DNA of 64,000 bases. It comes from a virus. The translations under genes and the position numbers were made by a program. The stretch lies in the IMG/VR virus record IMGVR_UViG_3300025789_000020; one strand, written 5' to 3'. This document shows positions 1-24,783 of the stretch, one piece after another. Positions within the stretch are counted from its first letter, which is position 1, and each line of letters opens with the position of its first letter. The notes beneath the pieces are model-generated. The model made no database searches and had not been told where the DNA came from. It was given only the letters and a program-made list of their open reading frames with translations.

Positions 1-1314
1 TTTACTTTAACTAGCAACACACTTAGCAGTTCAAGTTCAACAATTAATTTATTACCAAGTGGAGTTAATCCTGTAGTTTATCAGGGTAGCTTAACTATTG
101 GTACTCAATTAAACATCACTGGTAATACTATTGCCAGCTTAGGTACAAACACTGACATTAATATTAGTACTACTGGCACAGGTAATATTAATATTAATGC
201 CAATACTACAGTTAACGGCAACTTGCATGTTACTGGAAATATTACAGCTGACGGTGGTAGCGGCGGAAATATTACACTAGGTAATCAAACTACTGATACA
301 ATTACATTCACCGGCGAAGTTAACAGTGATATTTTACCATCTACAACTGGAACATATAATTTAGGTTCTAGTAGTTTACAGTGGAATAACTTATACGTTA
401 ATACTGCTAATTTTACAAACATTACAGTAACTAATCTAGTAGCAACAGATATTAAAACTGCTAATTTAGATATTAGTGGTAACACAATTAGCACATATAC
501 TGCTAATACTGATATCAACTTTACTACTAGCAACAACTATGGGTTACAAACTGGTAACTTAAGATTTTACAACAGTACCGTTACAAACGTTGTATCTAAT
601 GCTATCACAACTATTGGAACAGCACCTGTAGTTGCAAACTTCACCGGAGCAATTGCACTAGGTACAGCCGTAACATTTGTAGGTAATATCAACGGTACAA
701 CACTAAATGTTACATCAGCTCCAACTGGTGCTGGCATTGTTGCTGGTTATATAATTACTGGTAACCAAGTTGCCGCTGGATCATATATTATAGCTAATCT
801 AACAGGCACCGGTACAAGTAGCACTAGCACTTGGACCATATTTCCAGCACAGGTAGTATCTGGAACTACTATAACAGCTACCCCAATTATATTAACTGTA
901 ACAAGTTTTATTGGATCAATTCCAATTGTAAACGGAATGATCATAGCAGATACAGGCAATGCTGTTACAGCAGGAACTTATATTACTGCTCTAGGTTCGG
1001 GGTCAGGCGGCAACGGAACTTACTATGTAACACCAAGCCAAACAGTATCAGCAACAGCAATGACTGCTACTGGTAGCGGCACTGGATATACTAAAATTGC
1101 AGGCACATATGGTATTGTAATACCTAACGGTGGAAGTAGTGCCAGACCATTACAAGCCTATTCTGAACTTGGAATGATTCGTTATAATACCGATCTTCAG
1201 CTAGTTGAAGTTTGGACTGGATCAGCATGGATATCAGTTGCTGGTAGTAGTAGCGGTGTTAACGCACTACAGGCCAATGATATTGGCTTTGCGGCAGCAA
1301 TAACTTTCGGATAA
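1..1314 (+). CDS. Virion structural/fibre protein, 5'-truncated by the window edge
   Basis: Frame 1 is open from position 1 (FTLTSNTLSS...) to TAA at 1314. Thr/Gly/Asn-rich beta repeats and a C-terminal GMIRYNT...EVW motif typical of T4-like fibre/baseplate proteins. Confidence 0.7.
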   Translation, partial: FTLTSNTLSSSSSTINLLPSGVNPVVYQGSLTIGTQLNITGNTIASLGTNTDINISTTGTGNININANTTVNGNLHVTGNITADGGSGGNITLGNQTTDTITFTGEVNSDILPSTTGTYNLGSSSLQWNNLYVNTANFTNITVTNLVATDIKTANLDISGNTISTYTANTDINFTTSNNYGLQTGNLRFYNSTVTNVVSNAITTIGTAPVVANFTGAIALGTAVTFVGNINGTTLNVTSAPTGAGIVAGYIITGNQVAAGSYIIANLTGTGTSSTSTWTIFPAQVVSGTTITATPIILTVTSFIGSIPIVNGMIIADTGNAVTAGTYITALGSGSGGNGTYYVTPSQTVSATAMTATGSGTGYTKIAGTYGIVIPNGGSSARPLQAYSELGMIRYNTDLQLVEVWTGSAWISVAGSSSGVNALQANDIGFAAAITFG

Positions 1315-8008: not shown

Positions 8009-11000
8009 ATGGCTGAATTTAAACTAGGTAGAATTAAGTTCGTATGGCAAGGTAATTGGAGCGCATCCACTACCTATGTAAAAGACGACGTGGTACGCTA
8101 TGGCGGCCAAACGTATATGTGTGTCCTTGGACATACTGCAACTTCCAATTTTTATACGGACTTAGCTTCTGGTGATTGGCAAATAGTCAGTGATGGTTCA
8201 ACTTGGACCGGTGCTTGGGTAACTAGCACTTTTTATAAACTACGTGATATAGTTAGTTATGGTGGACGCCTTTATATTTGTAACACTCCGCACACATCTG
8301 CGGCAACTACAATTCTAGGGCTTGAAGCAAATCAAAGTAACTGGGATTTGTATGCCAGTTCTTTCAATTGGGTATCAGCTGGTTGGACTGTTAGTACAAA
8401 ATATAAAGTTAACGATATTGTCAACTACGGTGCTAATACATATATTTGTAATACCGCACACACTTCGGCTAGTACAACAGCACTAGGTCTTGAAAATGAT
8501 ATTTCTAACTGGGATATATGGACTAAAGGATTAGCTTGGACTGGTGCTTGGACTACTTCATATCGTTACAGAGCTAACGATATTGTATTATACGGTGGCA
8601 TTTCTTATGTGTGTAACACAGGGCATACATCTGCGTCTACAGCAACTTTGGGACTTGAAAATGATCAAAGTAAATGGGATTATCTACATAAAGGTATAAC
8701 ATACTTAGGAGCATGGAGTGGTAGTTCTGTTCGATACAAAGCAAACGATGTTGTTAAGTACGGCGCCGACTTGTGGATTTGTGGAACAGCACATACTTCT
8801 TCATCTACTTTTGCAACAGCTAACTGGTCAGTATGGATTGCAGGATTGCAATTTTATAACAGTTGGTCAAACGGCACAACATACCAAAACGGTGACATAG
8901 TAACATACGGTGGATACCAGTATGTATCACTAACTGTTAATACCGGAAGCACCCCATCAGCTACTTCAAGTGATTGGTCAATATTTACAACCGGCTTTAC
9001 TTTGTTAGGCGATTGGGTTAGCGGAACATCATACCAAACAGGTAACGTTGTTCGTCTAGGCGGTTATACTTATGTTGCTACATTAGACAATTCAGTTCAA
9101 ACAGTTACAGCAACAGCTACAACTAATACAACTGCATCAAATACTGGAGCGTTCATTACTGGTACTACAATGACCGCGGCAGGTACTCAGACAGGTACTT
9201 ACAGTGCAGGCATGACTTTAACTGGCGGAGCAGTTGCAGTAGGTACTACTATTACCACAGTTAATACAGCAACAATGGGCAATTCTAGTATTCTAGGACA
9301 GACATTAACAATCAGTGGAACAATTACTGGTACTATCAGTATTGGTATGGTTGTTACAGGCGGCGCAATTACTGCTGGTACATATATTACTGCTGGTAGT
9401 GGAACAAGCTGGACTGTTAACCAAACACAATCTGGAGTCTCATCTATCACTATTACTGGTACAAGTTATACTGTTAGTTCTTCACAATCAGTTTCATCGG
9501 CTAATATTACTGGTAGTATTAATGCTATTACAGTTGGATCAACTGCTAAATTATTACCTAATTTACCATTAGTATTCAGCGGTACAACTTTTGGTAATAT
9601 TGTAGCTAACACAACAACGTACTATGTTGGAACAATCATTAGTCTTACACAGTTTACAGTAAGCACATCATCAGGTGGATTACCATTTACACTAGTAACA
9701 GCTTCCGGCTCAATGACTGGAACAACAAATCCAACCCCTCCATTTACTGGTTACTGGTCAAGATTAAACAGCGGTATTCGTTGGAACCCAACAACACAGA
9801 CTTACTCTGCTATAAGCGGTACTAATGTTATAGGTAGCGGATCTAGTGCAACATTTAACGTTATCGCAAGTAGCACAACGTACACAGTGACCGTTGCTAA
9901 CGGGGGAACCGGTTATGCAAATACTAATACTATCAAGATTTTAGGAACTTCACTAGGTGGAATTAGTCCAGCAAACGATTTATTAATTACTGTTACTAAC
10001 GTATCAGGCGGTGTAATTCAATCAGGCGGAATTTCAACTACTGGTTATGCAGTAAGTTGGGCAACCGCTACTGGATACGTAGCAGGTGATACAGTTACTT
10101 TTGGTTCTAATAGTTATATTTGCGTGGCAGCTCATACCAGTGCAAGCGGAAACAGACCAGATGCAGATGTAACCGGTACCTACTGGAACGTACTAGCAGT
10201 TGGATCAGTGACTAACGTATTGACTACACAAGGCGATACAATTTATTATGGCGGCGCAGGTCCAACACGTTTACCAATTGGTACAGACGGACAAGTACTA
10301 CGCACATCTACAGTTGCTGGACAACTTACCCCTCAATGGGCATACTTTGGCGTTATTAATAATGTAGTGTATGTTGCTCCTACAGGAACTGACGTATTAG
10401 GTAATGGCCAAGGACAAACTCTTGATAAACCATGGCAGACTGTTCGATATGCAGCCTTGCAAGTTGAAAATGGTTACTTAAACACTAGTGCTCAAGCATT
10501 GCTAGCTAAGAACAAACAGTTTATGATGAAAGAAATTACAAACTTCATCATCTATAACTACACTGTTACAATTACAGCCACAACAGGCGGATCTCCAGGC
10601 ACTGGCACTAACAGTACTTTTACTTGTAACTCAACGGCCTACTTGTCATTGTACATGCCAATTGTTTTTAGCGTAACCTCAGTGAACGTTACCGCAGGTG
10701 TTACATATTATATTTCTAACATTGTTGATGCAACACACTTTTCTATCAGTACATCCTACGGTGGAACTACACAGGCGTTAACAGCTACAGGAAATATTGG
10801 ACAAACTGCAACACTAGTTTATAATTCAGCAAAGTGTGAGAGAGATGTTGGATACTTAGTAGATGCCGCTATATTTGATATTGGGCACGGTGGAAATCAA
10901 AAGAATACCTCAGCCGCACAGTCATATTTTAACAGCACCGGCAATCCAATTACTACAAGTTTTGGTTATCAAATTTCACAAAGTGTAACAGCTTATACTT

Positions 11001-14000
11001 ACTTGAAGAACTCATTGTTTGCCGCAGTGTTAGGTAATACTGCTCCTAGTAGCAACTATCAAACATTGAATGGTATTAGTTCAGGCAACCAAGCAAAACA
11101 AATCATTGATGTTAGTTTAACAGCTGAAACAGGTTCATTGACTGCTGTACAAACCAATTTAAGCATTGTTACAAATGCTTTAACAGCAAGTTCTGGCGTT
11201 GTACTAACAGGAGTTGTGATTGCAGGCACTTCTGGACAATTGACAGTTCCAGCCGGTACATACACTGTTGGCGCTAGTATTTTAGTAACAGGTACCAATA
11301 CTGGTACTGGTACTATTAGTAGTAATACCATATATTATATTATGACAGGTGGTACTAATGTATCATCTATTCAAGTAACAAATAGTTATGCTAATGCTAC
11401 ATCTAGTCCAGCAGTTGCAGGTACTGTAACTGCCGCTGGAACAACTACTGGTTTAACTTTTACATTCTTCCCTGGAGTAACAGTTGCAGCCGCTCAATTA
11501 CCACAAACAAGCATTATGGTTAAAACTGGTAATTACAGTGAAATACTTCCAATTGTAGTTCCATCTAATACTGCTATTGTAGGCGATGAACTTCGTGGTA
11601 CAGTAATTCAGCCAGCTGGTGCAGTAGCTAATTTAGTTAATGATAAACCTAAATCAGTGTTGGCATTAACACGTACAAAAGCATTGTTAAGTAATCTAGT
11701 TACAAATACATCAATTACTCCAACAAGCGGTAACACTGCAAGCCAAGTAACTAGCCTTCCAGCTGGTGATACTGGTAGCACTGCTGCCGCAAATACTGTG
11801 ATTAATAGTACAGCGTTAATATCTAACATCTTTACTAACGGTTTAGCAGTTGCGCCAACTTATACATTTACTAATCCAACAAACTATAATACTAGTTTCT
11901 TAGTTGGTTACGGTGATGCTAAAGCACAGATTGTACAAAACTACAATTTTATTAAAGCACAAATTAGCCAATACATTTACAATAACTATCTAAGTGTTTA
12001 TAACGCAATTAACGTGGCAAACTGCCAACGTGACGTTGGTTACATCTTAGATGCGTTACAGTACGATATGACTTATGGTACTAACATGCAGACTAACATT
12101 GCTGGTAGTGCTTATTATTCATATGGTGTGTTAACTGAAGCCGCAACAGAAAAAGTTGCAACTATTGCCGCATACACTCAATTAAAATCAATCATTGGTC
12201 AAGTAGCAACAGCAACATTAGTAACTGCACAAACAGCAACTAATGCAAGTATTACTGGTTATACTATTGGTACAGCCTTGTATGTAAGCTCAACAGTTTC
12301 TGGAACAATTCAAGTCGGGCAAGTGATTACTGGCGCAGGTATTGCATCTAACACAATTGTTACTGCATATAACTCAGTTAGTTCTAACTGGACTATTAGT
12401 ATTAGCCAAACAGTTGGCTCTATTGGTTCACCGATAGCAATTACTGGAGCATATCCAACACAAGTACAAACAGGTACTGCTGGATCGGCAAATGCCGCAA
12501 TATATGCTCAAGCTAGAATTCAAAACATTATTGACTGGATTACTAACAATGCGCAAACAACTACAGTTGTAACTACTACAGGAAGTTCAATTGGACCTTC
12601 TAGTACTACATTAACTATTGGTACACTAGTAAGTGGAACAATTGCTGTAGGACAACTAGTAACTGGTACAGGTGTTGCACCTGGAACTTATATCACTGCC
12701 AACATTAGCGGTAGCGGTAATGGATCTACATGGACTGTAAGTGTTAGCCAGACAGTGGCTAGCAGTGCTATCGGGATGCAAAGTTCATTTACTCCAAGCG
12801 ATGCAGGTACCGTGGGACTAAGCAGTGCTAGTTTACAAACAGCGTTTAACGCATTGGTTGCTAAGAAAACAGAAATTCAAAGTGATACAACAGTTTGGGT
12901 ACAAAAGTATTTCCAATCATTGAACTTCAATACTGCAACTTGTTATAGAGATGCTGGTTATATTGTTGATGCACTATGTTATGACCTAGTGTTAGGAACT
13001 AACTTTAACAGTATTATTGTCGGTAAGTCTTATTATCGTGCAATTACTAGTGCGCAAACAGTATTATTAAATCAAACACAAGCAGAAATTGGAGCAATTG
13101 GATTTATTGGCTACAAGGCAAAATTAATTGCAGCCAGCGGTTCAGCCGCACAAGCAAGTGTGATGATAGATGATATTATTGCTACTATTAACGGACAAGT
13201 AACTACTACTGCAACTGCATTTAATTCTTCAGGTAATGTAATTACACTTGCTACAACAGTTGGTGTTTACGTTGGAATGCCAGTAGTGTTTACATCTGGA
13301 AGTCAAGGTGGTACTCAGCAAAATCAAACATACTGGGTATTAACTGTTAATAATTCAACTAATCAGATTACAATCACAGCTACCTACGCAAGTGCAAGCA
13401 CATTTACATTAACAACTGCGGCTTCTACAAACGTATCAGTTACTATTGGTGCTAACGTACAAACACACGGTACTTTAACATACAACAATACGTTAAGTAC
13501 AATTAATGGTGCAGAAATTATTAGAGCTAATATTAATTTCTTAGCTTATGAGTCAGCCGCTTATATTACTGCAAGCTATGGTGGAACAGTATCTGGTACA
13601 AATAGTACTGGAAATCTTATCACAACTACTGGCAATCATAATTTTGTTGCAGGCGATCCTGTTACATTTACAGGTACTGTTGGAATTAGTAACATCGTTG
13701 CAGGAACTCAATACTATGTATTAGCCGCTGGATTAACCGCTACATCGTTTGCTATTACTGCAACACAATTTAGCCTAACTCCAGTACAAATAACAACCGC
13801 AACACTTGGTAGTTTAACAGTTAGTTATTCTTATAACTTAGCTAAGTGCGTTAGAGATACAACATCATACTTAAATGCAATTATCTATGATTTAAACTTT
13901 ACTGGTAATTATAAATCATTACGTGCCGCACAACTGTATAATAATGCAGTCGGTGGATCAGTAACACAAAACATGTTCTTGTTACGTAACGGTACAGGTC

Positions 14001-17000
14001 TACGAAATATGACTATGACTGGATTGACTGGAACACTAGGTCCTGCAAATGCGTTCGGTACAAAACGTCCAACAGCAGGTGCTTACAGTTCGTTAGATAC
14101 AGGTTTTGGACCAAACGATAGCAATGTATGGATTTATGCTCGTAGCCCATACACACAAAACTGTACAATGTTTGGTTATGGTTGCGTAGGTATGAAAATT
14201 GACGGATCACTACATGCCGGTGGTAACCGTTCTATTGTTGCTAACGACTATACAACTATTCTAAGTGACGGTATTGGTGTATGGTGTACAGGTTCAAGTT
14301 CATTAACTGAGCTAGTTTCTGTGTTCTGTTACTACAGTTATGCTGGTTACCTAGCAGAGCTAGGTGGACGTATGCGTGCCACAAACGGTAACAGTTCATA
14401 TGGTACGTATGGTACATTAGCTGAAGGCGGTGATACTTATGAAGTTCCGGTGACAGCCGCTATCAATAACCGGTCTAGTCAAGCAACAGTTACTAACGTG
14501 TTTACAGATAGTACAAATGCAATCTACCGATTTGAATTCTTCAATGCTGGATCAGGTTATAACTCAGCCACATGGTCGATTGGCGGTACTGGTTATAATG
14601 CCGCAGTTGTTGCTAATGAATTCCGTGATAATGCAGTGTTTGAAGTTCGCCCATTAACAGGCGGCGCAAACTATGTTACACAGTCAAACGTAGCTCAGGC
14701 TGGTACACTATACCAGATCAACTTAGCCGCAACAGACAGTGCTATTAGTGCAGCCTACGTTGGTATGCGAATTAACTTAACTGGTGGTACCGGTAACGGA
14801 CAAACTGGTTATATTGTTAATTACAATTCAGGTACTAAATTAGCAAACGTTGCTAAAGAAAGTTTTGTTCCTATAACATTAACTTTATGCTCTACATCAA
14901 CATTTACTACATCTTCTAATACAAATACATTGTATGCGAACATGCCAATATATTTTAGTGGGTCAAGTACCTTTGGTGGCAATAACATTACTCCACTTAC
15001 TACAGTCTACTGGGTGATTGGTGCAAGTTTATCTAGCGGCGGTACAACATTCTCAGTGGCAGCAAGTAGCGGAAGTTCAACACCTGTAGTACTAACAGCA
15101 GGTAGTGGTACTATGCTAGTTAATGCCGCTGGGTGGGACCATGTTGTTCCTGGTACAGTTAACGCTACAAACTTAGACTTAACAACTACATACATCATTG
15201 AGCCAAGAGTAACAGCTAGTGCTCCTGGATTTACTCCAAGCCTTGGAACTCAAGTGGTTAATGCCGCTGGTTGGGCTGATGTTGCATACGGTGATACTAA
15301 CGTTACATATAACTCTGTATCTGGTACAATTGGATTAGGTACTGGTACATTAAGTAGTGGTACTGGAGCAACATTTACTGTTGTTCGTACAGGAGTTGCA
15401 TATGCTGTAACTATTGCTACTGGTGGTACATTATATACTATTGGTAATACTATAACACTTCCTGGCACAAGTTTGGGCGGTGTAAGTACAACTAACGATA
15501 TTACTATTATCGTTACAAATATAAACACTACTACTGGTGCTATTACTAACTTTACATATACTGGGGTAGGATCAGGTGGGTACTATGTTGCAATTACTTC
15601 TAACGGTAATGCAACACAGTACAGTGCTAACGGTACAACATGGACTGCAGGTGGTACATTATCATCTAGCACAACATGGACAGCTATTGCTTATGGCGGA
15701 GGCACATGGGTTGCTATTGCTAAAGGCGGAACACTTTCAAACTACGCAACGACTCCATTAACATGGACTGCAAGTAGTGCAATGCCTGCTACTGCAAACT
15801 GGAGTGCTATTGCTTACGGTAATGGTAGATTTATGGCAGTTGCATCAGGCAGTGCAAACGCAGCCTATAGTACCAACGGTCAAAACTGGACAAATACTAA
15901 CGCATTGCCATCTAGTTCTACTTGGAACGGTGTAGCATATGGTGGTACAATTTGGGTAGCTATTGCAGGCGGTGTTTCTGGTTCAACAGTAGCCGCTTCG
16001 AGTGCAGATGGTACAACATGGACTGCTAGAACACTTCCAAGTTCACAAAACTGGACTAGTGTATCATTTGGTAAAAACATATTTGTAGCAATTGCGGCTT
16101 CAACAACTGCTACTGCTTACAGTATTGATGGTATTACATGGAAGAGTTCAGGTGCAGGTATGGCTGTTAGCCTACCATGGAGCAAAGTTCGTTATGGTCA
16201 AGGTCTATTCTTGGCAGCACCAGCTTCACAAAACCAAACTATTACAGCAACATCTAGTACTAGTGCAACATTTGCAGGTTATATTAGTGCTGTAACAGGT
16301 ATAAGCGGAACAACTGGTACAGTATTAACAGTAACTGGTTCAGTAGTTGGTACAATTGCAGTTGGTATGAACCTAAGCGGTGGTGGTACACAAAATGGAA
16401 CTTACATTGTTTCAACAGGTACTGGATCAGGTGGTACTGGTACTTACAACGTGAGCATTGCTAACAACGTTGGTACAACTGGATCTCCAGCATCATTTAC
16501 AGGTGTAAACAATTTAATTACAGTAAGTTCAACTACTGGTATTGTTGCAGGTGAAACATTCATTCCCACAGCAGTTACACAAACTCCTACAGCTACAGCT
16601 ACAACAAACGCTACAGCTACAATGACTAGCTCAAGCATTGCTGTAACTACAGGTATTTTAACAGTTGGTACACTATCAACTGGTACAATATATGTTGGTA
16701 TGGTGTTAACTGGCGGTAGTATTGCAGCCGGAGTATATATTACTGCTAACATTAGTGGTACCGGTAACGGGTCAACATGGCAGACTAACACAACTACTGC
16801 ACAGTCTAGTACAACAATTACTGGTACATTAAGTTCAATTACAGTTTCTAGTACTGCTGGATTAGTACCAGGTGAAAGTTTTGTGTCTACATCAAGTACA
16901 CAGTCTACTTCGGTAGTATCAACTGCGGCTTCTAGTGCAAACATTACACTAGCAAACTCAACCGGTATTGCTGTTGGTGAACCAATTGTGTTTACAGCCG

Positions 17001-20000
17001 CAACATTTAACCCTGTATTGCTAGCTGCCGCAACTGGAACTAACTTATTAACAGTAAGTAGCACAAGTAATTTAGTTGTAAATCAATCTATTGTCTTTAC
17101 AGCAGTTACACAAGGTACATCAGCAACAGCTACAACATCAGCTACTGCTACTATGACAGGTAGCACGATTGGTGGAACTGGTGTACTAACAGTTGGCACA
17201 CTAACAGCAGGCACTATATCAGTTGGTATGGTGTTAACTGGTGGTAGCATTGGGTCAAACGTGTACATTACTGCTAACTTATTAGGTAGTGGTAGTGGAT
17301 CAACATGGCAAACTAGTACAACTACACCACAAACTAGTACTACAATTACAGGAACATTAAGTTCAGTAACAGTTGGTTCTACAACTGGCATGGTTGTTGG
17401 CGAAACATTTAACGCTGTAGCAGTTACAGCTTCTACAACAGCTACTCAAACAACTACAACAAGTGCTACAATGCTTAACAGCAGTATCACTAGTGGTATT
17501 TTAACAGTTGGTACTGTATCAAGCGGTATTGTTACAATTGGTATGGCACTAAGTGGATCTGGTGTAACAGCTGGAGCATACATTGTTGCTAACATCAGCG
17601 GTAACGGTACTAGTGCTGGTAGTCAATGGGCTGTAAGTTCTGTACAAACAACAAACGTTAGTACAACAACTATTACTGGTACAAGTTATGTTGTAACTGT
17701 AGCTAGCAATAGTAATATGGTTGTCGGTGAATCATTTGCTACAGGATCATCTGGCGCATTTGGTAACTTAGCTAACAGTGCAACTTACTATATTTTAACA
17801 ATTAACAGTACATATATTACAATCAGTTCTACTCCAGGTGGTGCACCTTTTGTATTAACCAATGCAACTGGTACAGTTACAATTACAGCTGGTGCGGCAT
17901 TAGGCGGATTAACTAGCGGAAGCACATACTATATCTTAACAATCCCAACTTCAAGTACAGTTACATTAGGTTCTAACTTTGGTACAAACCCAGTAAGTTT
18001 AATTAACGGTGTAGGTAACTGGACTGTAACAACTGGACAAACATTTAGTTCTGTTACAGCTGGTGTAACTTATTACATAACTCAAGTTAATAGCGGTAGT
18101 AGCACTATCCAAATTTCTGCTACTGTTGGCGGCTCAACTCTAAACTTAACTACTGCGGCTGCAGGAGCATGGACTTCTGTTGCTGGCGGAGTTTTAGGCG
18201 GTATTGTTTCCGCTACCCAAACTTATTATGTATTATCTAACAATACAGGTACTAACGTAATTACTGTAGCTACCAGCTATAACGGTTCAGCAGTAACATG
18301 GGTACTAGGTGGTGGTTCATGGGCCGCAAGTGCTGGTGTAAGTTTAGGTGGTCCTGTAGCAACAGTCGGTCAAGTAACCACAGTTGCCGCAGGAACTGGT
18401 GTAATTACTACAACACAAACTGTATCAGCTCTAGGTATTAGTGTTGGTTCTATGATTTACTTCACTAACGGTACTGGTACAGTGTTTGGCGGACCAACTG
18501 CTAACACAATTTACTATGTAAACTCTGCAAGCACTAATAGTGTAACAGTAGCTACATACTCAGGCGGCGCTGGAACTGGAACAGCTTATACAACATGGGC
18601 TGGCGGTTCAGGTACTATGAATATTAACGTTGTTAGCACTGGTCTAGTAACAGGTATTCCATACTATATCTTAACAGTTGGTTCTGGATATGTTACAGTT
18701 GGTTCAAGTTTTGGCGGTGCTCCGATTCCATTAACTTCAAGCACTGGTGATTCTTGGTCTACAGCATGTGGTACAATATTTGGCGGGTTAGTATCAACTA
18801 GCACATATTATATCCAACAGGTATTCTCTGGAACTAGTCAGCTACAAGTTAGCCAGACATTAACTGGAGCATCGTATACATTGACAAGTGGTGCAGGATC
18901 TTGGACTTCGACAGCAGGTGCCGCAACACAGATATCTACGTCAAATGACGGTATTAATTGGGTTGCACAAAACTTAACGTCAGTAGCTTCATGGCCTGCA
19001 ATTGCATTTGGCAATCCAAGTTCAACACCGTTGTGGGTTGCATGCTCATTGAATACTGCAATATTCAATACAGTTGTTACTGGTGCTACTGCAACACTAC
19101 GTTGTAAAGTAAGTGCAGGTGCAATTAGTGAATATCGTATGATAGAGCCAGGTAGCGGATATCTAAATTTACCATCAATTACTATAGTTGATCCTAACCA
19201 AACTAGTAGTGCTACACAAAATCCTCGAATTGGTATAGGCGCACTGGCAAATCCGATGTGGACTAACAGAGGATTGCAGTATGCAACTGGTACTGCTACA
19301 GTTACAGGTAATGGTTATGCTGATGAATATCAGACTACATCTTATATTAACGTATCAGGATTATATACTACACCTACAGCTGGCGCAAATATTCAAATTG
19401 CAGGTAACGGAAGTTACTATAAATTAGTACAAGTTACTAACTTATTAGGAACTGGTCCCGGACTTGCACCGTATACTGCGATTTTCCAAATTAGTCCAGC
19501 ATTTATTTCTGCTAATGCACCGGTGCATGGATCAGCAATGACGCTGAAATTGAAATATAGCCAAGTACGTTTAACAGGACATGACTTCTTAAGTATCGGT
19601 ACTGGTAATCAAACTACAACGAACTACCCAGGTACACCGTTACAAGCACCACAACCAACCCTACAAACTGTAGGAAATGGCGGCGGTCGAGTGTTCTATA
19701 CAAGTACTGACCAGGACGGTAACTTCCAAGTTGGTACATTATTCAGTGTTCAACAGGCAACTGGTGTAGCAAGTATTAACGCTGATGCGTTTAACTTGGC
19801 AGGATTGAACTCATTGACCCTGGGTTCTATATCGTTAGGTTCTAGTAATGCAACTATTACTCAGTTCTCAACAGACCCGTACTTTACAGCCAATAGTGAC
19901 AACATTGTGCCAACACAAAAAGCTATTAAATCATACATTAGTAGCCAAATTGGTGGTGGTTCTAGTGCTTTGAACGTAAATACACTTACAGCAGGTGTAA

Positions 20001-20131
20001 TTTATATCGCAGGAAACTCAATTTCAACTTCAACACAAGTTCAAATTTTAGTACCTGCAACTATGAATTTCACCGGAGCAAATGCAGGTATCAACGGGAT
20101 ACCGCTAGCAATGAACTTTTTATTACAATAA
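8009..20131 (+). CDS. Giant tail fibre/spike protein (4040 aa), paralogue of the 1969-aa protein with large insertions
   Basis: SD GGAG. Collinear conserved blocks shared with the 1969-aa protein (MA.FK..RI.F.W, IVGDELRGTVIQP, RATNGNSSYGTYGT, TGHDFL.IGTGN, TSTDQDGNF.VG, VPTQKA). Confidence 0.8.
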   Translation: MAEFKLGRIKFVWQGNWSASTTYVKDDVVRYGGQTYMCVLGHTATSNFYTDLASGDWQIVSDGSTWTGAWVTSTFYKLRDIVSYGGRLYICNTPHTSAATTILGLEANQSNWDLYASSFNWVSAGWTVSTKYKVNDIVNYGANTYICNTAHTSASTTALGLENDISNWDIWTKGLAWTGAWTTSYRYRANDIVLYGGISYVCNTGHTSASTATLGLENDQSKWDYLHKGITYLGAWSGSSVRYKANDVVKYGADLWICGTAHTSSSTFATANWSVWIAGLQFYNSWSNGTTYQNGDIVTYGGYQYVSLTVNTGSTPSATSSDWSIFTTGFTLLGDWVSGTSYQTGNVVRLGGYTYVATLDNSVQTVTATATTNTTASNTGAFITGTTMTAAGTQTGTYSAGMTLTGGAVAVGTTITTVNTATMGNSSILGQTLTISGTITGTISIGMVVTGGAITAGTYITAGSGTSWTVNQTQSGVSSITITGTSYTVSSSQSVSSANITGSINAITVGSTAKLLPNLPLVFSGTTFGNIVANTTTYYVGTIISLTQFTVSTSSGGLPFTLVTASGSMTGTTNPTPPFTGYWSRLNSGIRWNPTTQTYSAISGTNVIGSGSSATFNVIASSTTYTVTVANGGTGYANTNTIKILGTSLGGISPANDLLITVTNVSGGVIQSGGISTTGYAVSWATATGYVAGDTVTFGSNSYICVAAHTSASGNRPDADVTGTYWNVLAVGSVTNVLTTQGDTIYYGGAGPTRLPIGTDGQVLRTSTVAGQLTPQWAYFGVINNVVYVAPTGTDVLGNGQGQTLDKPWQTVRYAALQVENGYLNTSAQALLAKNKQFMMKEITNFIIYNYTVTITATTGGSPGTGTNSTFTCNSTAYLSLYMPIVFSVTSVNVTAGVTYYISNIVDATHFSISTSYGGTTQALTATGNIGQTATLVYNSAKCERDVGYLVDAAIFDIGHGGNQKNTSAAQSYFNSTGNPITTSFGYQISQSVTAYTYLKNSLFAAVLGNTAPSSNYQTLNGISSGNQAKQIIDVSLTAETGSLTAVQTNLSIVTNALTASSGVVLTGVVIAGTSGQLTVPAGTYTVGASILVTGTNTGTGTISSNTIYYIMTGGTNVSSIQVTNSYANATSSPAVAGTVTAAGTTTGLTFTFFPGVTVAAAQLPQTSIMVKTGNYSEILPIVVPSNTAIVGDELRGTVIQPAGAVANLVNDKPKSVLALTRTKALLSNLVTNTSITPTSGNTASQVTSLPAGDTGSTAAANTVINSTALISNIFTNGLAVAPTYTFTNPTNYNTSFLVGYGDAKAQIVQNYNFIKAQISQYIYNNYLSVYNAINVANCQRDVGYILDALQYDMTYGTNMQTNIAGSAYYSYGVLTEAATEKVATIAAYTQLKSIIGQVATATLVTAQTATNASITGYTIGTALYVSSTVSGTIQVGQVITGAGIASNTIVTAYNSVSSNWTISISQTVGSIGSPIAITGAYPTQVQTGTAGSANAAIYAQARIQNIIDWITNNAQTTTVVTTTGSSIGPSSTTLTIGTLVSGTIAVGQLVTGTGVAPGTYITANISGSGNGSTWTVSVSQTVASSAIGMQSSFTPSDAGTVGLSSASLQTAFNALVAKKTEIQSDTTVWVQKYFQSLNFNTATCYRDAGYIVDALCYDLVLGTNFNSIIVGKSYYRAITSAQTVLLNQTQAEIGAIGFIGYKAKLIAASGSAAQASVMIDDIIATINGQVTTTATAFNSSGNVITLATTVGVYVGMPVVFTSGSQGGTQQNQTYWVLTVNNSTNQITITATYASASTFTLTTAASTNVSVTIGANVQTHGTLTYNNTLSTINGAEIIRANINFLAYESAAYITASYGGTVSGTNSTGNLITTTGNHNFVAGDPVTFTGTVGISNIVAGTQYYVLAAGLTATSFAITATQFSLTPVQITTATLGSLTVSYSYNLAKCVRDTTSYLNAIIYDLNFTGNYKSLRAAQLYNNAVGGSVTQNMFLLRNGTGLRNMTMTGLTGTLGPANAFGTKRPTAGAYSSLDTGFGPNDSNVWIYARSPYTQNCTMFGYGCVGMKIDGSLHAGGNRSIVANDYTTILSDGIGVWCTGSSSLTELVSVFCYYSYAGYLAELGGRMRATNGNSSYGTYGTLAEGGDTYEVPVTAAINNRSSQATVTNVFTDSTNAIYRFEFFNAGSGYNSATWSIGGTGYNAAVVANEFRDNAVFEVRPLTGGANYVTQSNVAQAGTLYQINLAATDSAISAAYVGMRINLTGGTGNGQTGYIVNYNSGTKLANVAKESFVPITLTLCSTSTFTTSSNTNTLYANMPIYFSGSSTFGGNNITPLTTVYWVIGASLSSGGTTFSVAASSGSSTPVVLTAGSGTMLVNAAGWDHVVPGTVNATNLDLTTTYIIEPRVTASAPGFTPSLGTQVVNAAGWADVAYGDTNVTYNSVSGTIGLGTGTLSSGTGATFTVVRTGVAYAVTIATGGTLYTIGNTITLPGTSLGGVSTTNDITIIVTNINTTTGAITNFTYTGVGSGGYYVAITSNGNATQYSANGTTWTAGGTLSSSTTWTAIAYGGGTWVAIAKGGTLSNYATTPLTWTASSAMPATANWSAIAYGNGRFMAVASGSANAAYSTNGQNWTNTNALPSSSTWNGVAYGGTIWVAIAGGVSGSTVAASSADGTTWTARTLPSSQNWTSVSFGKNIFVAIAASTTATAYSIDGITWKSSGAGMAVSLPWSKVRYGQGLFLAAPASQNQTITATSSTSATFAGYISAVTGISGTTGTVLTVTGSVVGTIAVGMNLSGGGTQNGTYIVSTGTGSGGTGTYNVSIANNVGTTGSPASFTGVNNLITVSSTTGIVAGETFIPTAVTQTPTATATTNATATMTSSSIAVTTGILTVGTLSTGTIYVGMVLTGGSIAAGVYITANISGTGNGSTWQTNTTTAQSSTTITGTLSSITVSSTAGLVPGESFVSTSSTQSTSVVSTAASSANITLANSTGIAVGEPIVFTAATFNPVLLAAATGTNLLTVSSTSNLVVNQSIVFTAVTQGTSATATTSATATMTGSTIGGTGVLTVGTLTAGTISVGMVLTGGSIGSNVYITANLLGSGSGSTWQTSTTTPQTSTTITGTLSSVTVGSTTGMVVGETFNAVAVTASTTATQTTTTSATMLNSSITSGILTVGTVSSGIVTIGMALSGSGVTAGAYIVANISGNGTSAGSQWAVSSVQTTNVSTTTITGTSYVVTVASNSNMVVGESFATGSSGAFGNLANSATYYILTINSTYITISSTPGGAPFVLTNATGTVTITAGAALGGLTSGSTYYILTIPTSSTVTLGSNFGTNPVSLINGVGNWTVTTGQTFSSVTAGVTYYITQVNSGSSTIQISATVGGSTLNLTTAAAGAWTSVAGGVLGGIVSATQTYYVLSNNTGTNVITVATSYNGSAVTWVLGGGSWAASAGVSLGGPVATVGQVTTVAAGTGVITTTQTVSALGISVGSMIYFTNGTGTVFGGPTANTIYYVNSASTNSVTVATYSGGAGTGTAYTTWAGGSGTMNINVVSTGLVTGIPYYILTVGSGYVTVGSSFGGAPIPLTSSTGDSWSTACGTIFGGLVSTSTYYIQQVFSGTSQLQVSQTLTGASYTLTSGAGSWTSTAGAATQISTSNDGINWVAQNLTSVASWPAIAFGNPSSTPLWVACSLNTAIFNTVVTGATATLRCKVSAGAISEYRMIEPGSGYLNLPSITIVDPNQTSSATQNPRIGIGALANPMWTNRGLQYATGTATVTGNGYADEYQTTSYINVSGLYTTPTAGANIQIAGNGSYYKLVQVTNLLGTGPGLAPYTAIFQISPAFISANAPVHGSAMTLKLKYSQVRLTGHDFLSIGTGNQTTTNYPGTPLQAPQPTLQTVGNGGGRVFYTSTDQDGNFQVGTLFSVQQATGVASINADAFNLAGLNSLTLGSISLGSSNATITQFSTDPYFTANSDNIVPTQKAIKSYISSQIGGGSSALNVNTLTAGVIYIAGNSISTSTQVQILVPATMNFTGANAGINGIPLAMNFLLQ

Positions 20132-20832: not shown

Positions 20833-21588
20833 ATGTCAAATTTAAGAGACTTGCTTCCTTCAAGTGCGCCTAATACAGCCTACAAACAGCAGGTGATTAG
20901 TGTGTATAACACTAACATTGACTCTGTTTCAAATGGCGGTGCATGCTGTTGCTGGGTAGTGCCAACTGGCGTTACTTGGGCAGTATTTGAAACATGGAGC
21001 GGCGGCGGAGACGGTGCAGGTGCATGTTGTTGTATGGGTCCGTATTGGGGACCTGGAGGCGGCAACTACAGTAAAAAATATCTACCAGTAACATCTGGCA
21101 CTTACTTTATCCTATGCGGCGGTGGCTCAGGCTGTTGCGCACAGCAGTGTTGTGGTACATGTGGATTATCAAGTTTCGCACTTTGCGCAAACAACACAAA
21201 CGTAGCATATTCATGCGGCGGATACATGGGATGTGTATTGTGTTTTAGAACATACATGGGCTGTACTGGTATTTGTATACCTAGTTGCTCATATGGTTGC
21301 TACTCATTAAACTACGATCTTACAATGCCTTCAGTATCAAGCCCAAACAAAGTAAGTAATTACTGCTGGAGTAACCAATGGGAATGGTCACATGGAGTTT
21401 CAAAATACGGTAATTACATTCGTCAAGGTATGGATTACTGCTTAGTTAGTTTAACAATTTCAGGCCGCAATATGATGTGCGGCGCAAAATGGCCAGGCGG
21501 CGCAGGTAATAGCGCAACTGCTTGCGGCGGCGGATGCTGTTGGGGTGGTTGGGGTGCAGGCGGCTTAGCCATGGTAACATACGGATAA
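20833..21588 (+). CDS. Cys/Gly-rich putative fibre-tip adhesin, paralogue 1 (26 Cys)
   Basis: W.VP.G...FE.W.GGG.G.GACCC ... WPGG ... CCWGGWG.GGL..VTY. Confidence 0.55.
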   Translation: MSNLRDLLPSSAPNTAYKQQVISVYNTNIDSVSNGGACCCWVVPTGVTWAVFETWSGGGDGAGACCCMGPYWGPGGGNYSKKYLPVTSGTYFILCGGGSGCCAQQCCGTCGLSSFALCANNTNVAYSCGGYMGCVLCFRTYMGCTGICIPSCSYGCYSLNYDLTMPSVSSPNKVSNYCWSNQWEWSHGVSKYGNYIRQGMDYCLVSLTISGRNMMCGAKWPGGAGNSATACGGGCCWGGWGAGGLAMVTYG

Positions 21589-21601
21589 AAAGGATATAAA
21601 A

Positions 21602-22297
21602 ATGGATCAACAAGAAAAAGAGAATTTTGAGAATCCCCGAGTTGAGGTAACATTTACCTATGACATCGCTGATCAATATCTCTATCAAACAAATACACTA
21701 AAGAAAACTGCGCAATGGACTTATAAAGGTCCAGAGCATCTATGGATCTTTATTGACAAAGCTACTATGAAAATTTCTAGTCGTTTCCACTATACACTAC
21801 GTGACGATGGTCACCTAGTACCATGTCCAGAAGATATGATCAAAGTAGAGCTGGATGCTAAGAAGTGGCCATGTATTGCTAGTCTAATACACAATGAATA
21901 CACATATGGTGAATTGCCTCATACTTTAGAACAATTACCTGATGGTGCAACATACGGTCACCCAGATCCTATTCCACCAGACCACACATATGAACTAATT
22001 GAAATTGTATGGGATGCTGACAAACAAGACTTTGTTACTCCATATCCATGGAAAAAGCCACATATGGATTGGGATACATTAACAGCCGCACGTGATGCAA
22101 TTCTAAAGAATACAGATCAACCTTATCATCAAGCAATTGATCCAGTTATTAAACAAAAATTATCAGAGTACCGTCAAAAGTTACGTGATCTTCCAAAGAC
22201 ATTTGCAGGTATTGACCCATGGAAAGTTCCATTCCCGACAGATCCAGTTGCTGTGGTAATGCCAACTACTCCAGGCGATCTTGGTCCTAAAGTATAA
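21602..22297 (+). CDS. Tail fibre assembly chaperone-like (Tfa-type) protein 1
   Basis: C-terminal R...L..TD ... EYRQKLRDLP motif; lies directly after a fibre-tip gene. Confidence 0.65.
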   Translation: MDQQEKENFENPRVEVTFTYDIADQYLYQTNTLKKTAQWTYKGPEHLWIFIDKATMKISSRFHYTLRDDGHLVPCPEDMIKVELDAKKWPCIASLIHNEYTYGELPHTLEQLPDGATYGHPDPIPPDHTYELIEIVWDADKQDFVTPYPWKKPHMDWDTLTAARDAILKNTDQPYHQAIDPVIKQKLSEYRQKLRDLPKTFAGIDPWKVPFPTDPVAVVMPTTPGDLGPKV

Positions 22298-22315
22298 TCT
22301 GGAGAATATTATAAT

Positions 22316-23071
22316 ATGAGTAGCTTAACACAGTTTTTTCCAGACAGTAGATATATATTTAATATCCCACAAACCTACGGTAACTTGTATGTATACAACG
22401 GTAACACTGGTGCCGCAGTTCAGGACGGTGGAAAATGCTGTTTATGGGTTGTTCCAGCTGGGGTAGCCTGGGCTAAATTTGAAGTCTGGGGAGCAGGCGG
22501 TGATGGAGGTGGCGCATGTTGCTGTCAACAACCTTCACAAGGTGGAGGTTCAGGTACTTACTCACGTAAGACTATTCGTGTAGTTCCAGGACAATGCTAC
22601 TTAATCTGTGCAGGTGGGTCAGGATGTTGTGCCCAAGATGCTCACGGTACTGCTGGTTTCCCAAGTTTTGCACAAGGTGCAGGTACAGTTACCTATTCAC
22701 TAAACTTGTGTTCAAGTGGCGGATACGGTGGTCAAAGTTGTTGCTGGGCGGCAATTGGTGGTAACTACCACTGTGCAACTAACGTATGCGGATGCGCATG
22801 CGGATATGACTTAGCAATTTGCGGAGTTACTGGTGCATCACACGAAGGTTGGTGCGGATATGACTCATGGCACATGATGGGATCTCCAACATATATTGGT
22901 GCAGGTACACGTACATCATTCACAGAATGTGGTGAATCATGGATGGGATGTGCAATGAGCGGCAACTTTAATGCTTGGCCAGGTGGTGGCGGTGGAACTG
23001 CAATCAGTTATGGCGGGTGTTGTTGGGGCGGTTGGGGCTCAGGCGGCCTAGTCCAAGTAACTTACAGATAA
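22316..23071 (+). CDS. Cys/Gly-rich putative fibre-tip adhesin, paralogue 2 (22 Cys)
   Basis: Same motif framework as 20833..21588; SD GGAG. Confidence 0.55.
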   Translation: MSSLTQFFPDSRYIFNIPQTYGNLYVYNGNTGAAVQDGGKCCLWVVPAGVAWAKFEVWGAGGDGGGACCCQQPSQGGGSGTYSRKTIRVVPGQCYLICAGGSGCCAQDAHGTAGFPSFAQGAGTVTYSLNLCSSGGYGGQSCCWAAIGGNYHCATNVCGCACGYDLAICGVTGASHEGWCGYDSWHMMGSPTYIGAGTRTSFTECGESWMGCAMSGNFNAWPGGGGGTAISYGGCCWGGWGSGGLVQVTYR

Positions 23072-23084
23072 GGCGCAAATAACT

Positions 23085-23846
23085 ATGTCAGATTTAAGAT
23101 CATTAATGTACACGCTAAATTATTCAGCTGGTACAAACTATCCTACAGAATTACTAGTATACAATACTAGTTATAACTCAGGAGCAAACGGCGGACAATG
23201 CTGTAACTTCGTAGTGCCAGCTGGCGCATCTTTTGTCACATTTGAAATGTGGGGTGGAGGCGGTGGTGGCTCTGGAGCATGTTGCTGTATGCAATCATGG
23301 CCAGGTGGTGGCGCAAGTTATTCTGTAAAAACTGTGTATAGTTCAGCCCTTGCAGGATGCTCATACACAGTATGTGCCGCAGGTACAACGTATCAATCAG
23401 TTAACTGTATTGGCTGCGGTGGCAATACTAGTTATGTTACAGGTTATGGCTTAAGTAACTTCTGTGCTAACGGTGGTAGTTATGGAAACGCTACTTGCTG
23501 GTTGTATTTCTCATGCTATACATGTTCAACAGAAATGCCATATTGCTGTTGCGCATACGGTGGCGACGTAAATATCCACGGTATTCAAAGTGGGTATACT
23601 GGTAGTACATGGTGCGCACAGTACGGACAACAACACGCTCAAACTGCTCCGGCAGCACAATCAGGTCCATTCTATGGCCCAGGTGGCTGTATTAACGGAA
23701 GTCAACAAGGTAACTTAGGTTGCTCTGGTTGGTTTGGTTATACTCCATTCCCAGGCGGTGGTGGCCTAAGTGCGCAAGCCTACGGCGGTAGCTGTTGGTG
23801 TGGCGGCATGGGCGGCGGCGGTTTAGTTTCAATTACATACGGATAA
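23085..23846 (+). CDS. Cys/Gly-rich putative fibre-tip adhesin, paralogue 3 (21 Cys)
   Basis: Same motif framework (GACCC, FPGGGG, GGLVSITYG). Confidence 0.55.
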   Translation: MSDLRSLMYTLNYSAGTNYPTELLVYNTSYNSGANGGQCCNFVVPAGASFVTFEMWGGGGGGSGACCCMQSWPGGGASYSVKTVYSSALAGCSYTVCAAGTTYQSVNCIGCGGNTSYVTGYGLSNFCANGGSYGNATCWLYFSCYTCSTEMPYCCCAYGGDVNIHGIQSGYTGSTWCAQYGQQHAQTAPAAQSGPFYGPGGCINGSQQGNLGCSGWFGYTPFPGGGGLSAQAYGGSCWCGGMGGGGLVSITYG

Positions 23847-23850
23847 AAAA

Positions 23851-24783
23851 ATGGCAGATTTAACAACAAATACAATTATTGAAAAAACATTTACGTATGA
23901 TGTGCCAGATGACTATCTAAGTACAGAGCGTACTTTAAATAAAACAGCAACTCATACGTATAAAGGCCCAAACAAAATTTGGGTATTTGTAGACAAAGAA
24001 ACAAATAAGTATGCAGGTCCGTGGCTTACCGAAGCAGAAGACGGCGCTGATGTTCCAGAACCATTGCACAAAACTAAAGTAATGGTTGACTGCGAAACAA
24101 ATCCTATTATCTGTCAAATTATCGGTGCTGATATTTTACATCGTACACCATATGACGAGCTTGAGCAACTTTCAGAAACATTACCAGACGGCAGTGTATA
24201 TACTCGTGTGAAAGATACCCCTCCAGATCATACTCACGATCACACTGAATTAACTTGGAATCCTACAACTAGTACGTGGGTACTACCTGCATTTAGAGAG
24301 CCACATGTTACATGGCACGATCTTAGAAAATGGCGTAACAACTCATTAACTACAACTGATGCATTAGTAGCAGATGATACTCCTGACAGTCATAAAGCTT
24401 CTTGGGAAGAATTCCGTCAAAAACTACGCGATATGCCACAAGTACACGGTGCAGTTAATGTAGAGCATGATGCTGATGTTACAGCAACAGCTCCTGTTAA
24501 CACACCACATCAATTTGTTATTCAATTAACTGATGTCACTGGTATTATAGCTGATATGTGGGTAAGTAATACAGATTGGACATTGCAAAATGGGTTATTT
24601 GACCCAGGTGCAATTACTTCAGTAGTAAGTGTTGACGCTGTTACAAAACAAGTTACATTAAGTACTCCAATTATTCGTCAAGTTGAAGATACAAACAAGG
24701 CAATTAAGTTTCACGGTGAACCAACTACTAAACCTTGGAAGTGGCAACCTATAAAAAGTCCAGACGGCACATACGGTGCTTAA
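23851..24783 (+). CDS. Tail fibre assembly chaperone-like protein 2
   Basis: Paralogue of 21602..22297 (FTYD..D.YL, YKGP..W, LPDG..Y, PPDHT, FRQKLRDMP). Confidence 0.65.
   Translation: MADLTTNTIIEKTFTYDVPDDYLSTERTLNKTATHTYKGPNKIWVFVDKETNKYAGPWLTEAEDGADVPEPLHKTKVMVDCETNPIICQIIGADILHRTPYDELEQLSETLPDGSVYTRVKDTPPDHTHDHTELTWNPTTSTWVLPAFREPHVTWHDLRKWRNNSLTTTDALVADDTPDSHKASWEEFRQKLRDMPQVHGAVNVEHDADVTATAPVNTPHQFVIQLTDVTGIIADMWVSNTDWTLQNGLFDPGAITSVVSVDAVTKQVTLSTPIIRQVEDTNKAIKFHGEPTTKPWKWQPIKSPDGTYGA

Follow-up and report, generated by a model that had tools for sequence, protein, structure and literature searches.

Two giant paralogous fibre proteins are encoded side by side in a stretch of viral DNA, and one of them carries, within a single propeller-like repeat, a long insert that has no counterpart in the other. 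What is this insert, and how does its chain fold? The stretch, IMG/VR virus record IMGVR_UViG_3300025789_000020, is 64,000 nucleotides (nt) long and is referred to here as the window. The two genes adjoin on its + strand; the first encodes P0002 (open reading frame 2039-7948, 1969 amino acids (aa)) and the second encodes P0001, the protein that bears the insert (Table 1). The insert is most probably a recursively self-nested array of one small beta-barrel of ~70 aa, through which the chain runs out and back. A first-pass annotation of the window, made from the sequence alone, had proposed such recursive insertion with an out-and-back, two-stranded path, and the order of the modules, the balanced relatives, the predicted pairing of the limbs and the barrel fold of the unit all support this.

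An insert at the turn of a host repeat

The host region of P0001 consists of six or seven repeats of ~42 aa with the pattern W...YG.G.FVA...S.DG..W, in which an Asp-box-like motif, S-x-D-G-x-x-W, can be recognised by eye. When the C-terminal halves of P0001 and P0002 are compared by BLASTP, the alignment stops at P0001 aa ~2737 (YGQGLFLA) and restarts at aa ~3636 (ATQISTSNDG). The P0002 residues that match the two breakpoints are neighbours (aa 1556/1557), and the insert is therefore 898 aa long (nt ~16220-18913), close to the ~900 aa at 16235-18925 given by the first-pass annotation. It lies between two strand-like segments, at the hairpin turn of the sixth repeat.

Both flanks were located in 80 homologous IMG/VR loci, and in almost all of these they are separated by 0-13 residues. 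A large insert is found between them only in the window, in its close relatives L001, L002 and L083 (893 aa), in L021 (~1470 aa, taken as the distance between the flanking motifs) and in L038 (~1500 aa). The insert is also rare in larger collections, with about ten proteins in 5.8 billion clusters and 68 matches at E<=1e-3 among 1.84 billion representatives, so that a deep alignment cannot be built. An assembly artefact was ruled out: the architecture is kept at 51-84% identity in independent metagenomes, and the repeat units have diverged from each other.

Two halves of one barrel

Two sequence elements recur in the insert. The first, called here the opener, has the consensus I-T-V-x-S-T-x-G-L-x-x-G-E/P-x-I/F, and the second, the closer, reads F-G-G-L ... 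T-Y-Y-V ... I-T-I-S ... G-S-W. When all closers in the 80 loci are considered, an opener lies within 30 residues upstream in 131 of 140 non-identical cases, and the exceptions are mostly closers preceded by another closer. In the intact domain cited by the first-pass annotation (aa 507-574), opener and closer are contiguous. Judged by this sequence evidence, opener and closer are two halves of one ~70-aa domain. An AlphaFold2 model of the innermost unit of the insert (aa 3225-3300, 149-row alignment) is a small beta-barrel, with a predicted local distance difference test score (pLDDT) of 77.3 and a predicted template modelling score (pTM) of 0.65.

Hidden Markov models (HMMs) built from the half-domains find six openers in the insert, starting at aa 2835, 2942, 2977, 3012, 3118 and 3227 (25-30 bits, independent E-values 1e-9 to 3e-8), followed by six closers starting at aa 3251, 3298, 3346, 3396, 3545 and 3591 (47-57 bits, independent E-values 7e-15 to 4e-18). 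These matches, strong for elements this short, fall at the nucleotide positions where six first halves and then six second halves had been noted in the first pass. A merged ungapped opener HMM was discarded; it mixed registers and performed worse. With O for opener and C for closer, the whole of P0001 can be written as OC OC OC OC OC OOOOOO CCCCCC. With six of each, only 1 of 924 orderings places all openers before all closers.

Balanced nests in related proteins

Independent repeat arrays would have no need to match in number, whereas nested barrels should gain or lose one opener and one closer at a time. The comparison of nesting depth across homologues, which the first-pass annotation had called for, was made by eye in about ten proteins, and openers and closers do change together: their counts are equal in every nest inspected, at 2, 6, 7 and 13 levels. 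At the sixth propeller-like repeat, the window and its relatives L001 and P0003 (51-55% identical to the insert) have six openers, six closers and one intact side barrel, while L021 and P0005 have seven of each. P0075 also has a 7/7 nest, at another site.

The deepest nest is in P0004, a protein of 3616 aa encoded on a 24 kb ENA metagenome contig with the same gene order as the window. It has 13 openers and 13 closers with conserved flanks (aa 832-1893, without side domains), at the place where P0001 has one intact barrel (aa 1743-1812). Its openers are 34-35 aa and its closers 47-49 aa long, and since the units are only 29-71% identical to each other, the array is not an assembly artefact. 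Shallow nests of two levels (OOCC) are found in P0002, P0003, P0004, L086 (twice) and L087, at sites where other homologues have a single intact barrel. In P0002, an apparent A-like module (the A-type modules are described below) is inserted in the outer closer of this nest (aa ~1205-1260).

L038 and P0077 at first seemed to be an exception, with six openers and seven closers. The missing opener was located directly after the host strand, as nesting predicts; it scores 13.7 bits in L038 and lies more than 600 aa upstream of the next opener. The resolved word is balanced and branched, O OOOO CC OO CCCCC, which suggests a forked arm. In both proteins (L038 aa 1338-2883; P0077 aa ~1150-2650) the nest occupies the same host repeat as the insert of the window, and ~600 aa of other domains lie between the outermost and the next opener. 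Multiple levels are therefore seen both in the window, as OOOOOO CCCCCC, and in its relatives, as balanced and branched balanced words.

Predicted pairing of the two limbs

A nested array should show an anti-diagonal pattern in which opener n meets closer 7-n, as the first-pass annotation had pointed out. The insert was cut at its apex, and the opener limb (chain 1, aa 2835-3250) and the closer limb (chain 2, aa 3251-3640) were given to ESMFold2 as separate chains. The ipSAE interface score of the two limbs is 0.63, against 0.00 for the best of three controls. The mark for this score is reached by 58 of 80 solved complexes and by 2 of 110 mismatched pairs, a benchmark that holds only approximately for the custom 3-row alignments supplied here. 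At least 94% of contacts recur between runs, the partner pLDDT is at least 78, and there are ~1040 inter-chain contacts.

The confident interface includes all six openers with their linkers and all orphan closers, so the limbs interlock along their whole length; chain 1 residues 118-210 lie in it without a gap. The intact side barrel (chain 2 residues 201-293) has no confident contact with the opener limb, and the A-type modules add few residues. Among the pairs with the lowest expected error (~1 A), chain 1 residues 193-197, the S-I-V-F-T strand of opener 4, lie on chain 2 residues 104-142 of closer 3, where they face the T-Y-Y-I strand, the I-Q-I-S strand and the final A-W-T-S-V strand. At the same expected error, chain 1 residues 158-162 (opener 3) lie on chain 2 residues 149-192 (closer 4). 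The expected pairs are thus returned explicitly for openers 4 and 3, while for the other levels the agreement comes from the lists of interface residues.

Independent folding of the halves as successive domains, with no long-range anti-diagonal contacts, is not what the prediction returns. Halves that are contiguous in more than 130 intact units are, by prediction, separated but interlocking in the insert. Because both chains are halves of one natural chain, the model shows complementarity of the limbs rather than binding in trans. No sequence relative of the insert was found in the PDB at E<=10, and recall of a solved complex by the predictor is therefore unlikely.

Proposed architecture of the arm

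In the proposed architecture, the opener would provide strands 1-2 of the barrel and the closer the remaining strands, and a complete copy of the barrel would have been inserted repeatedly into the opener/closer junction of the preceding copy. The chain would leave the hairpin turn of the sixth propeller-like repeat and lay down openers 1 to 6. It would then turn at the sole contiguous barrel, formed by opener 6 and closer 1, and on its return through closers 2 to 6 would complete barrels 5, 4, 3, 2 and 1 in that order. The product would be a zipped, two-limbed, presumably monomeric side arm of six stacked barrels in the distal part of the fibre, with four A-type modules attached to its outgoing limb and an additional barrel to its returning one. 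In the first-pass annotation the stalk was thought to lengthen the fibre; this part has to be revised, since an arm that buds sideways from a propeller-like repeat does not extend the fibre axis.

If the arm is built like the RNA polymerase insert Si3, in which seven solved SBHM (sandwich-barrel hybrid motif) domains make a rod of 150 A, it would be an elongated rod roughly 15 nm long. Its function would be to hold accessory, probably glycan- or surface-binding, modules off the fibre, with a reach set by the nesting depth. Our tentative reading is that A-type modules are offered to the host surface on an arm whose reach can be adjusted. The nest of P0004, with 13 levels and free of side domains, looks like a pure spacer.

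Several observations weigh against the nested architecture or limit its support. As a single chain (923 aa, 6-row alignment), the whole insert gave an uninformative AlphaFold2 model, with a mean pLDDT of 31 and a pTM of 0.23; of the structure prediction that had been suggested as a check, it is the split-limb ESMFold2 run that was informative, with its pairing at levels 3 and 4. Explicit residue pairs are confined to these two levels, and they come from a language model given two artificial half-chains and 3-row alignments. Automatic opener/closer words are unbalanced in many homologues; openers, at ~20 aa, are hard to detect, and the HMMs miss diverged ones. The beta-propeller assigned to the host in the first pass is reasonable from the repeat motif, and six or seven Asp-box-like repeats are indeed present; a Pfam search with them gave only sub-threshold matches, to DUF6242 and EPTP, and a search of PDB sequences gave nothing.

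Co-variation also gives little help. When the similarity matrices of openers and closers in the window are compared, mirror pairing ranks only 108 of 720 permutations. For the 13 levels of P0004, the correlation is r=0.45 (p=0.013) under mirror pairing, r=0.34 (p=0.055) under parallel pairing and ~0 in shifted registers; once the outermost and innermost levels are removed, the mirror value falls to r=0.15 (p=0.23). Such co-evolution tests of paired halves are too weak to serve as support.

Alternative explanations

The nested topology might be right and the shape different. Its six barrels and five side domains could be packed against the side of the propeller in a compact or flexible lobe, a scaffold that displays the A-type modules in the manner of a bottle brush and does not set a length. 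Relatives with branched nests and side inserts of 330-600 aa on one limb would fit such a lobe, as would the few predicted contacts of the A-type modules with the opposite limb, and the head of Si3 is mobile in cryo-electron microscopy (PMC10895346). We nevertheless regard a lobe as unlikely. The linkers of both limbs lie in the predicted interface over its whole length, as would be expected of two limbs zipped together; the very regular units of P0004, 13 levels without any side domain, make little sense other than as a spacer or rod; and Si3, with this topology, forms a 150 A rod that is well ordered (PMC10895346).

Another possibility is that the nesting is real and is completed in trans, with the opener run of one subunit completing the closers of its neighbour in a domain-swapped, intertwined arm of a dimer or trimer. 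Many phage fibres are trimers, the counts would have to balance in this case too, and the ESMFold2 pairing, made with separate chains, does not distinguish cis from trans. Four features of the insert make this quite improbable. The insert starts and ends in a single hairpin turn of a single repeat. Opener 6 runs into closer 1 over a link of ~2 residues, and the two make up a contiguous barrel of the kind seen in more than 130 intact units. The linkers between consecutive closers are only ~7 aa, so that closure within the chain is simplest. Finally, carbohydrate-binding module repeats (CBM5/12, see below) with a propeller-like array would seem typical of single-chain, beads-on-a-string designs. 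We therefore infer that pairing occurs within one chain.

That openers and closers are unrelated tandem repeats which fold in sequence, their equal numbers being a coincidence, can hardly be held: it would agree with the AlphaFold2 model of the whole insert, which has no confident long-range structure, with the unbalanced automatic words and with the duplication of an A-type module and opener on the outgoing limb alone (260 nt, 72%), but a 20-aa opener cannot fold by itself, the two elements together make up a contiguous barrel more than 130 times, the counts match in every inspected nest (2, 6, 7, 7, 7, 13), and in the predicted complex the limbs interlock, all modules being part of the interface, with controls at 0.00.

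Evolution of the nests

At orthologous sites, homologues have one barrel, a two-level nest or a 13-level nest. Insertion of a whole unit at the opener/closer junction is the simplest route between these states, because tandem duplication would give OCOC and not OOCC. When the outer halves of two- and 13-level nests are compared with the single barrel of P0001 at the same site, they give no uniform picture: orthology is clear for the openers in three of four two-level nests and mixed for the closers.

The outgoing limb of the window insert contains a direct repeat (16649-16908 and 17177-17436; 260 nt, 72% DNA identity) made up of an A-type module and the next opener, that is, A-type module 2 with opener 2 and A-type module 3 with opener 5. 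This is an old segmental duplication confined to that limb. The duplicated openers, 5 and 2, have closers 2 and 5 as their proposed partners, and these closers have a distinctive motif in common, V-T-[LV]-G-S-x-F-G; it would seem, then, that a barrel was copied with both its halves. The motif does not discriminate between mirror and parallel pairing.

The barrel unit and its likenesses

Among solved structures, the best matches of the unit model are accessory or inserted barrels of phage virion proteins, followed by barrels of the translation-factor domain-II type. They include 9jlf_E, the head-to-tail protein of FCWL1 (Z 6.1, root mean square deviation (rmsd) 2.6, 66 residues aligned), 9n71_B, the tail-tube protein of Mystique (Z 6.0), and residues 268-341 of 4hiz_A, the phi92 endosialidase (Z 4.7, rmsd 2.5, 62 residues aligned, 8% sequence identity), which we take to be a barrel inserted in the endosialidase propeller. 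A Foldseek search of the PDB with the unit model places the P22 coat protein on top (8i1v_D, E 0.23, query TM-score (TMq) 0.51, rmsd 8.3; P22 capsid rows 8i1v and 8i1t at E 0.23-0.6). The P22 I-domain (2m5s_A) is likewise the best match of the unit sequence profile among PDB sequences, at an E-value of 0.023 that is below significance. These solved-structure matches are too weak for family membership. No SBHM or RNA polymerase chain is present among the top 50 Foldseek or VIA-align rows for the unit model, in which all scores are modest (Z<=6.1), a result with which a distant relation would still be compatible.

In BFVD, the unit model matches many fibre-like proteins of uncultured phages at a TMq of 0.7-0.84, which makes the barrel a module widespread in phage fibres, though no Pfam family covers it. 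Searches of Pfam and of PDB sequences with the insert, the unit and the A-type module gave nothing significant. Four further proteins, P0007, P0008, P0011 and P0014 (1278-2842 aa), contain dozens of the same barrel in plain tandem (OCOCOC...), with an occasional OOCC. The one module thus serves both as tandem beads and as nests.

Side modules

The first-pass annotation had spoken of intact side domains between the halves. One of them is indeed an intact barrel of the same family, on the returning limb (aa ~3470-3543), but the other four belong to a different family, termed A-type here, which is unrelated to the barrel and has the motif G-x-L-T-V-G-T-L..G-T-I.V-G-M.L-T-G-G ... S-T-W. In other proteins, which are short, A-type modules are fused to a phage cement domain (Phage_cement, capsid decoration) or to a concanavalin A-like lectin domain. 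The module may be a mobile accessory of virion surfaces. The cement and lectin fusions would fit exposed accessory modules, perhaps adhesive ones.

An additional copy of the A-type module in the window lies at 9143-9484 (aa ~380-492). In L021 (aa 2430-2556) and P0005 (aa 2567-2693), a closer is interrupted by an A-type module between the T-Y-Y-I strand and the next strand; a second loop of the barrel therefore accepts insertions as well.

Comparison with known systems

The closest known case is Si3 of the cyanobacterial RNA polymerase beta' subunit, whose crystal structure is an elongated, well-ordered rod of 150 x 50 A in which four SBHM domains are discontinuous (PMC10895346). In a survey covering 2.7 million classified domains, the nesting of Si3, reported as six-level, is the deepest example highlighted (PMC13114784). 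In both Si3 and the phage insert, a small beta domain family is inserted into its own copies, domains are built from distant parts of a single chain, and the array leaves and re-enters a hairpin-like element of the host, which in Si3 is the trigger loop. The two differ in fold, apparently a closed barrel of the phage accessory type here and an SBHM in Si3, and in host, a virion fibre here and an enzyme there. The phage insert, known from sequence and predictions, also has a strict order of all openers before all closers, foreign side modules and, in its relative P0004, 13 levels.

In the RTX adhesins AhLap and MpIBP, split domains project ligand-binding domains from a fibre (PMC12077191). There too a stalk domain is interrupted, the guest buds sideways with its N and C termini adjacent, and carbohydrate- or ligand-binding modules are held off the shaft. 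RTX adhesins usually have only one or two levels, with Ig (immunoglobulin)-like hosts and unrelated guests, and these bacterial adhesins carry RTX repeats and are secreted through a type I secretion signal. In the phage insert, by contrast, the guest is of the same family as its host, six times over, and the setting is a phage fibre; a Pfam scan of the whole of P0001 found no RTX family.

Two phage proteins resemble the arrangement in a simpler form. The phi92 endosialidase tailspike (4hiz) is a receptor-binding protein with a small beta-barrel that emerges from its propeller; it differs in being a trimeric enzyme with a single, non-nested barrel, and both the structural score and the sequence identity given above are low. 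The I-domain of the P22 coat protein (2m5s) is a six-stranded accessory beta-barrel that is itself inserted in a host fold on the virion surface, but it is larger (~120 aa), present in a single copy and part of a capsid protein, and its match to the unit is not significant.

No description of nested or recursive domain insertion in phage fibres was found in the literature. Recursive insertion as such is known; this fold, the setting in a virion fibre and the depth (6 levels, and 13 in a relative) are new, and the regularity and the cargo on the limbs also set the insert apart.

What self-nesting would mean

Fibrous virion proteins are usually explained by tandem repeats, trimeric beta-helices or coiled coils. 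A self-inserted stalk would be a third construction principle. The arm starts and ends at the same point of the host fold, which means that a loop can accept an arm of whatever length and leave the host undisturbed; its length would change in steps of a whole barrel, and each level would offer two limbs for cargo. It is an evenly balanced question whether self-nesting is a general, evolvable route to single-chain fibre arms of adjustable length, with whole-barrel steps in depth, forks, and cargo on any limb.

If the nested reading is correct, no recursive domain insertion described so far would be as deep as that of P0004, whose 13 levels are about double the six highlighted for RNA polymerase. 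They would also pose a folding problem, as the outermost barrel cannot close until ~1000 residues later. Phage fibres would then be the richest natural example of recursive domain insertion, which has so far been illustrated mainly by Si3, and their natural series of 1, 2, 6, 7 and 13 levels would allow the co-translational folding of discontinuous domains to be studied. A scaffold for engineered projections of defined reach would also be suggested. For annotation, the lesson is to count and pair the half-domains of a long run before describing them as novel repeats.

Features of the locus

Table 1. Positions of the fibre gene, the insert with its half-domains and side domains, and the two-level nest of the paralogue (window coordinates in nt; residues in aa)
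Feature	Position	Residues	Strand	Basis or remark
Two-level nest (OOCC) of paralogue P0002	5213..5728	~1059-1230	+	HMM and translation; P0001 counterpart is a single barrel, aa 2298-2370
P0001 gene, tail fibre	8009..20131	4040 aa	+	Six N-terminal CBM5/12 repeats and conserved fibre C-terminus
Host strand YGQGLFLAA, sixth propeller-like repeat	16193..16219	2729-2737	+	BLASTP to paralogue; flank mapping in 80 homologous loci
898-aa insert	16220..18913	2738-3635	+	Without counterpart in paralogue and most homologues
A-type side domain 1	16292..16516	2762-2836	+	Alignment; at base, before opener 1
Opener 1, proposed half of outermost barrel (partner closer 6)	16517..16582	2837-2858	+	HMM 29.3 bits; interface chain 1 residues 2-33
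A-type side domain 2	16616..16837	2870-2943	+	Alignment; few predicted contacts with closer limb
Opener 2 (proposed partner closer 5)	16838..16903	2944-2965	+	HMM 28.3 bits; interface chain 1 residues 107-131
Opener 3 (proposed partner closer 4)	16943..17008	2979-3000	+	HMM 29.6 bits; predicted contact pairs
Opener 4 (proposed partner closer 3)	17048..17113	3014-3035	+	HMM 29.8 bits; predicted contact pairs
A-type side domain 3	17141..17365	3045-3119	+	Alignment
Opener 5 (proposed partner closer 2)	17366..17431	3120-3141	+	HMM 25.3 bits; interface chain 1 residues 282-316
A-type side domain 4	17456..17692	3150-3228	+	Alignment; adjoins tip
Innermost contiguous barrel, proposed stalk tip	17693..17899	Opener 6, 3229-3250; closer 1, 3251-3297	+	HMM; AlphaFold2
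Closer 2	17900..18043	3298-3345	+	HMM 52.6 bits; in predicted interface
Closer 3 (predicted to pair with opener 4)	18044..18193	3346-3395	+	HMM 51.3 bits; contact pairs
Closer 4 (predicted to pair with opener 3)	18194..18343	3396-3445	+	HMM 49.7 bits; contact pairs
Intact same-family side barrel, returning limb	18416..18637	~3470-3543	+	By eye, aligned; closer half at lenient thresholds; between closers 4 and 5
Closer 5	18638..18778	3544-3590	+	HMM 47.2 bits; interface chain 2 residues 294-341
Closer 6, would complete outermost barrel; chain back to host repeat	18779..18922	3591-3638	+	HMM 57.4 bits; interface chain 2 residues 344-387

Genomic context

The fibre genes lie in the structural region of a myovirus, which encodes a tail sheath protein, a sheath-related protein, the terminase large subunit and virion structural proteins. 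A nucleotide search against INPHARED phages gave no match. Both fibres match phrog_9851, ‘tail fiber protein’, over the N- and C-terminal parts that are conserved (P0001, E 3.8e-159; P0002, E 3e-159). According to Pfam, N-terminal CBM5/12 repeats (PF02839) are common to the two proteins; in P0001 they occupy six N-terminal stretches outside the insert, with 116.8 bits against a cut-off of 26.2 (E 4e-34). The C-terminal ~130-180 aa have 37-57% identity to annotated tail-fibre proteins of the Synechococcus phages S-CAM1 and S-CAM3 and of Pelagibacter phage Mosig.

Downstream of the P0001 gene, the region 20833-24783 encodes several proteins of ~250 aa (phrog_4205) and a protein weakly similar to tail-fibre-assembly proteins (phrog_4912, phrog_8716). 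The contig that encodes P0004 has the same layout, including a weak match to Gly_rich_2.

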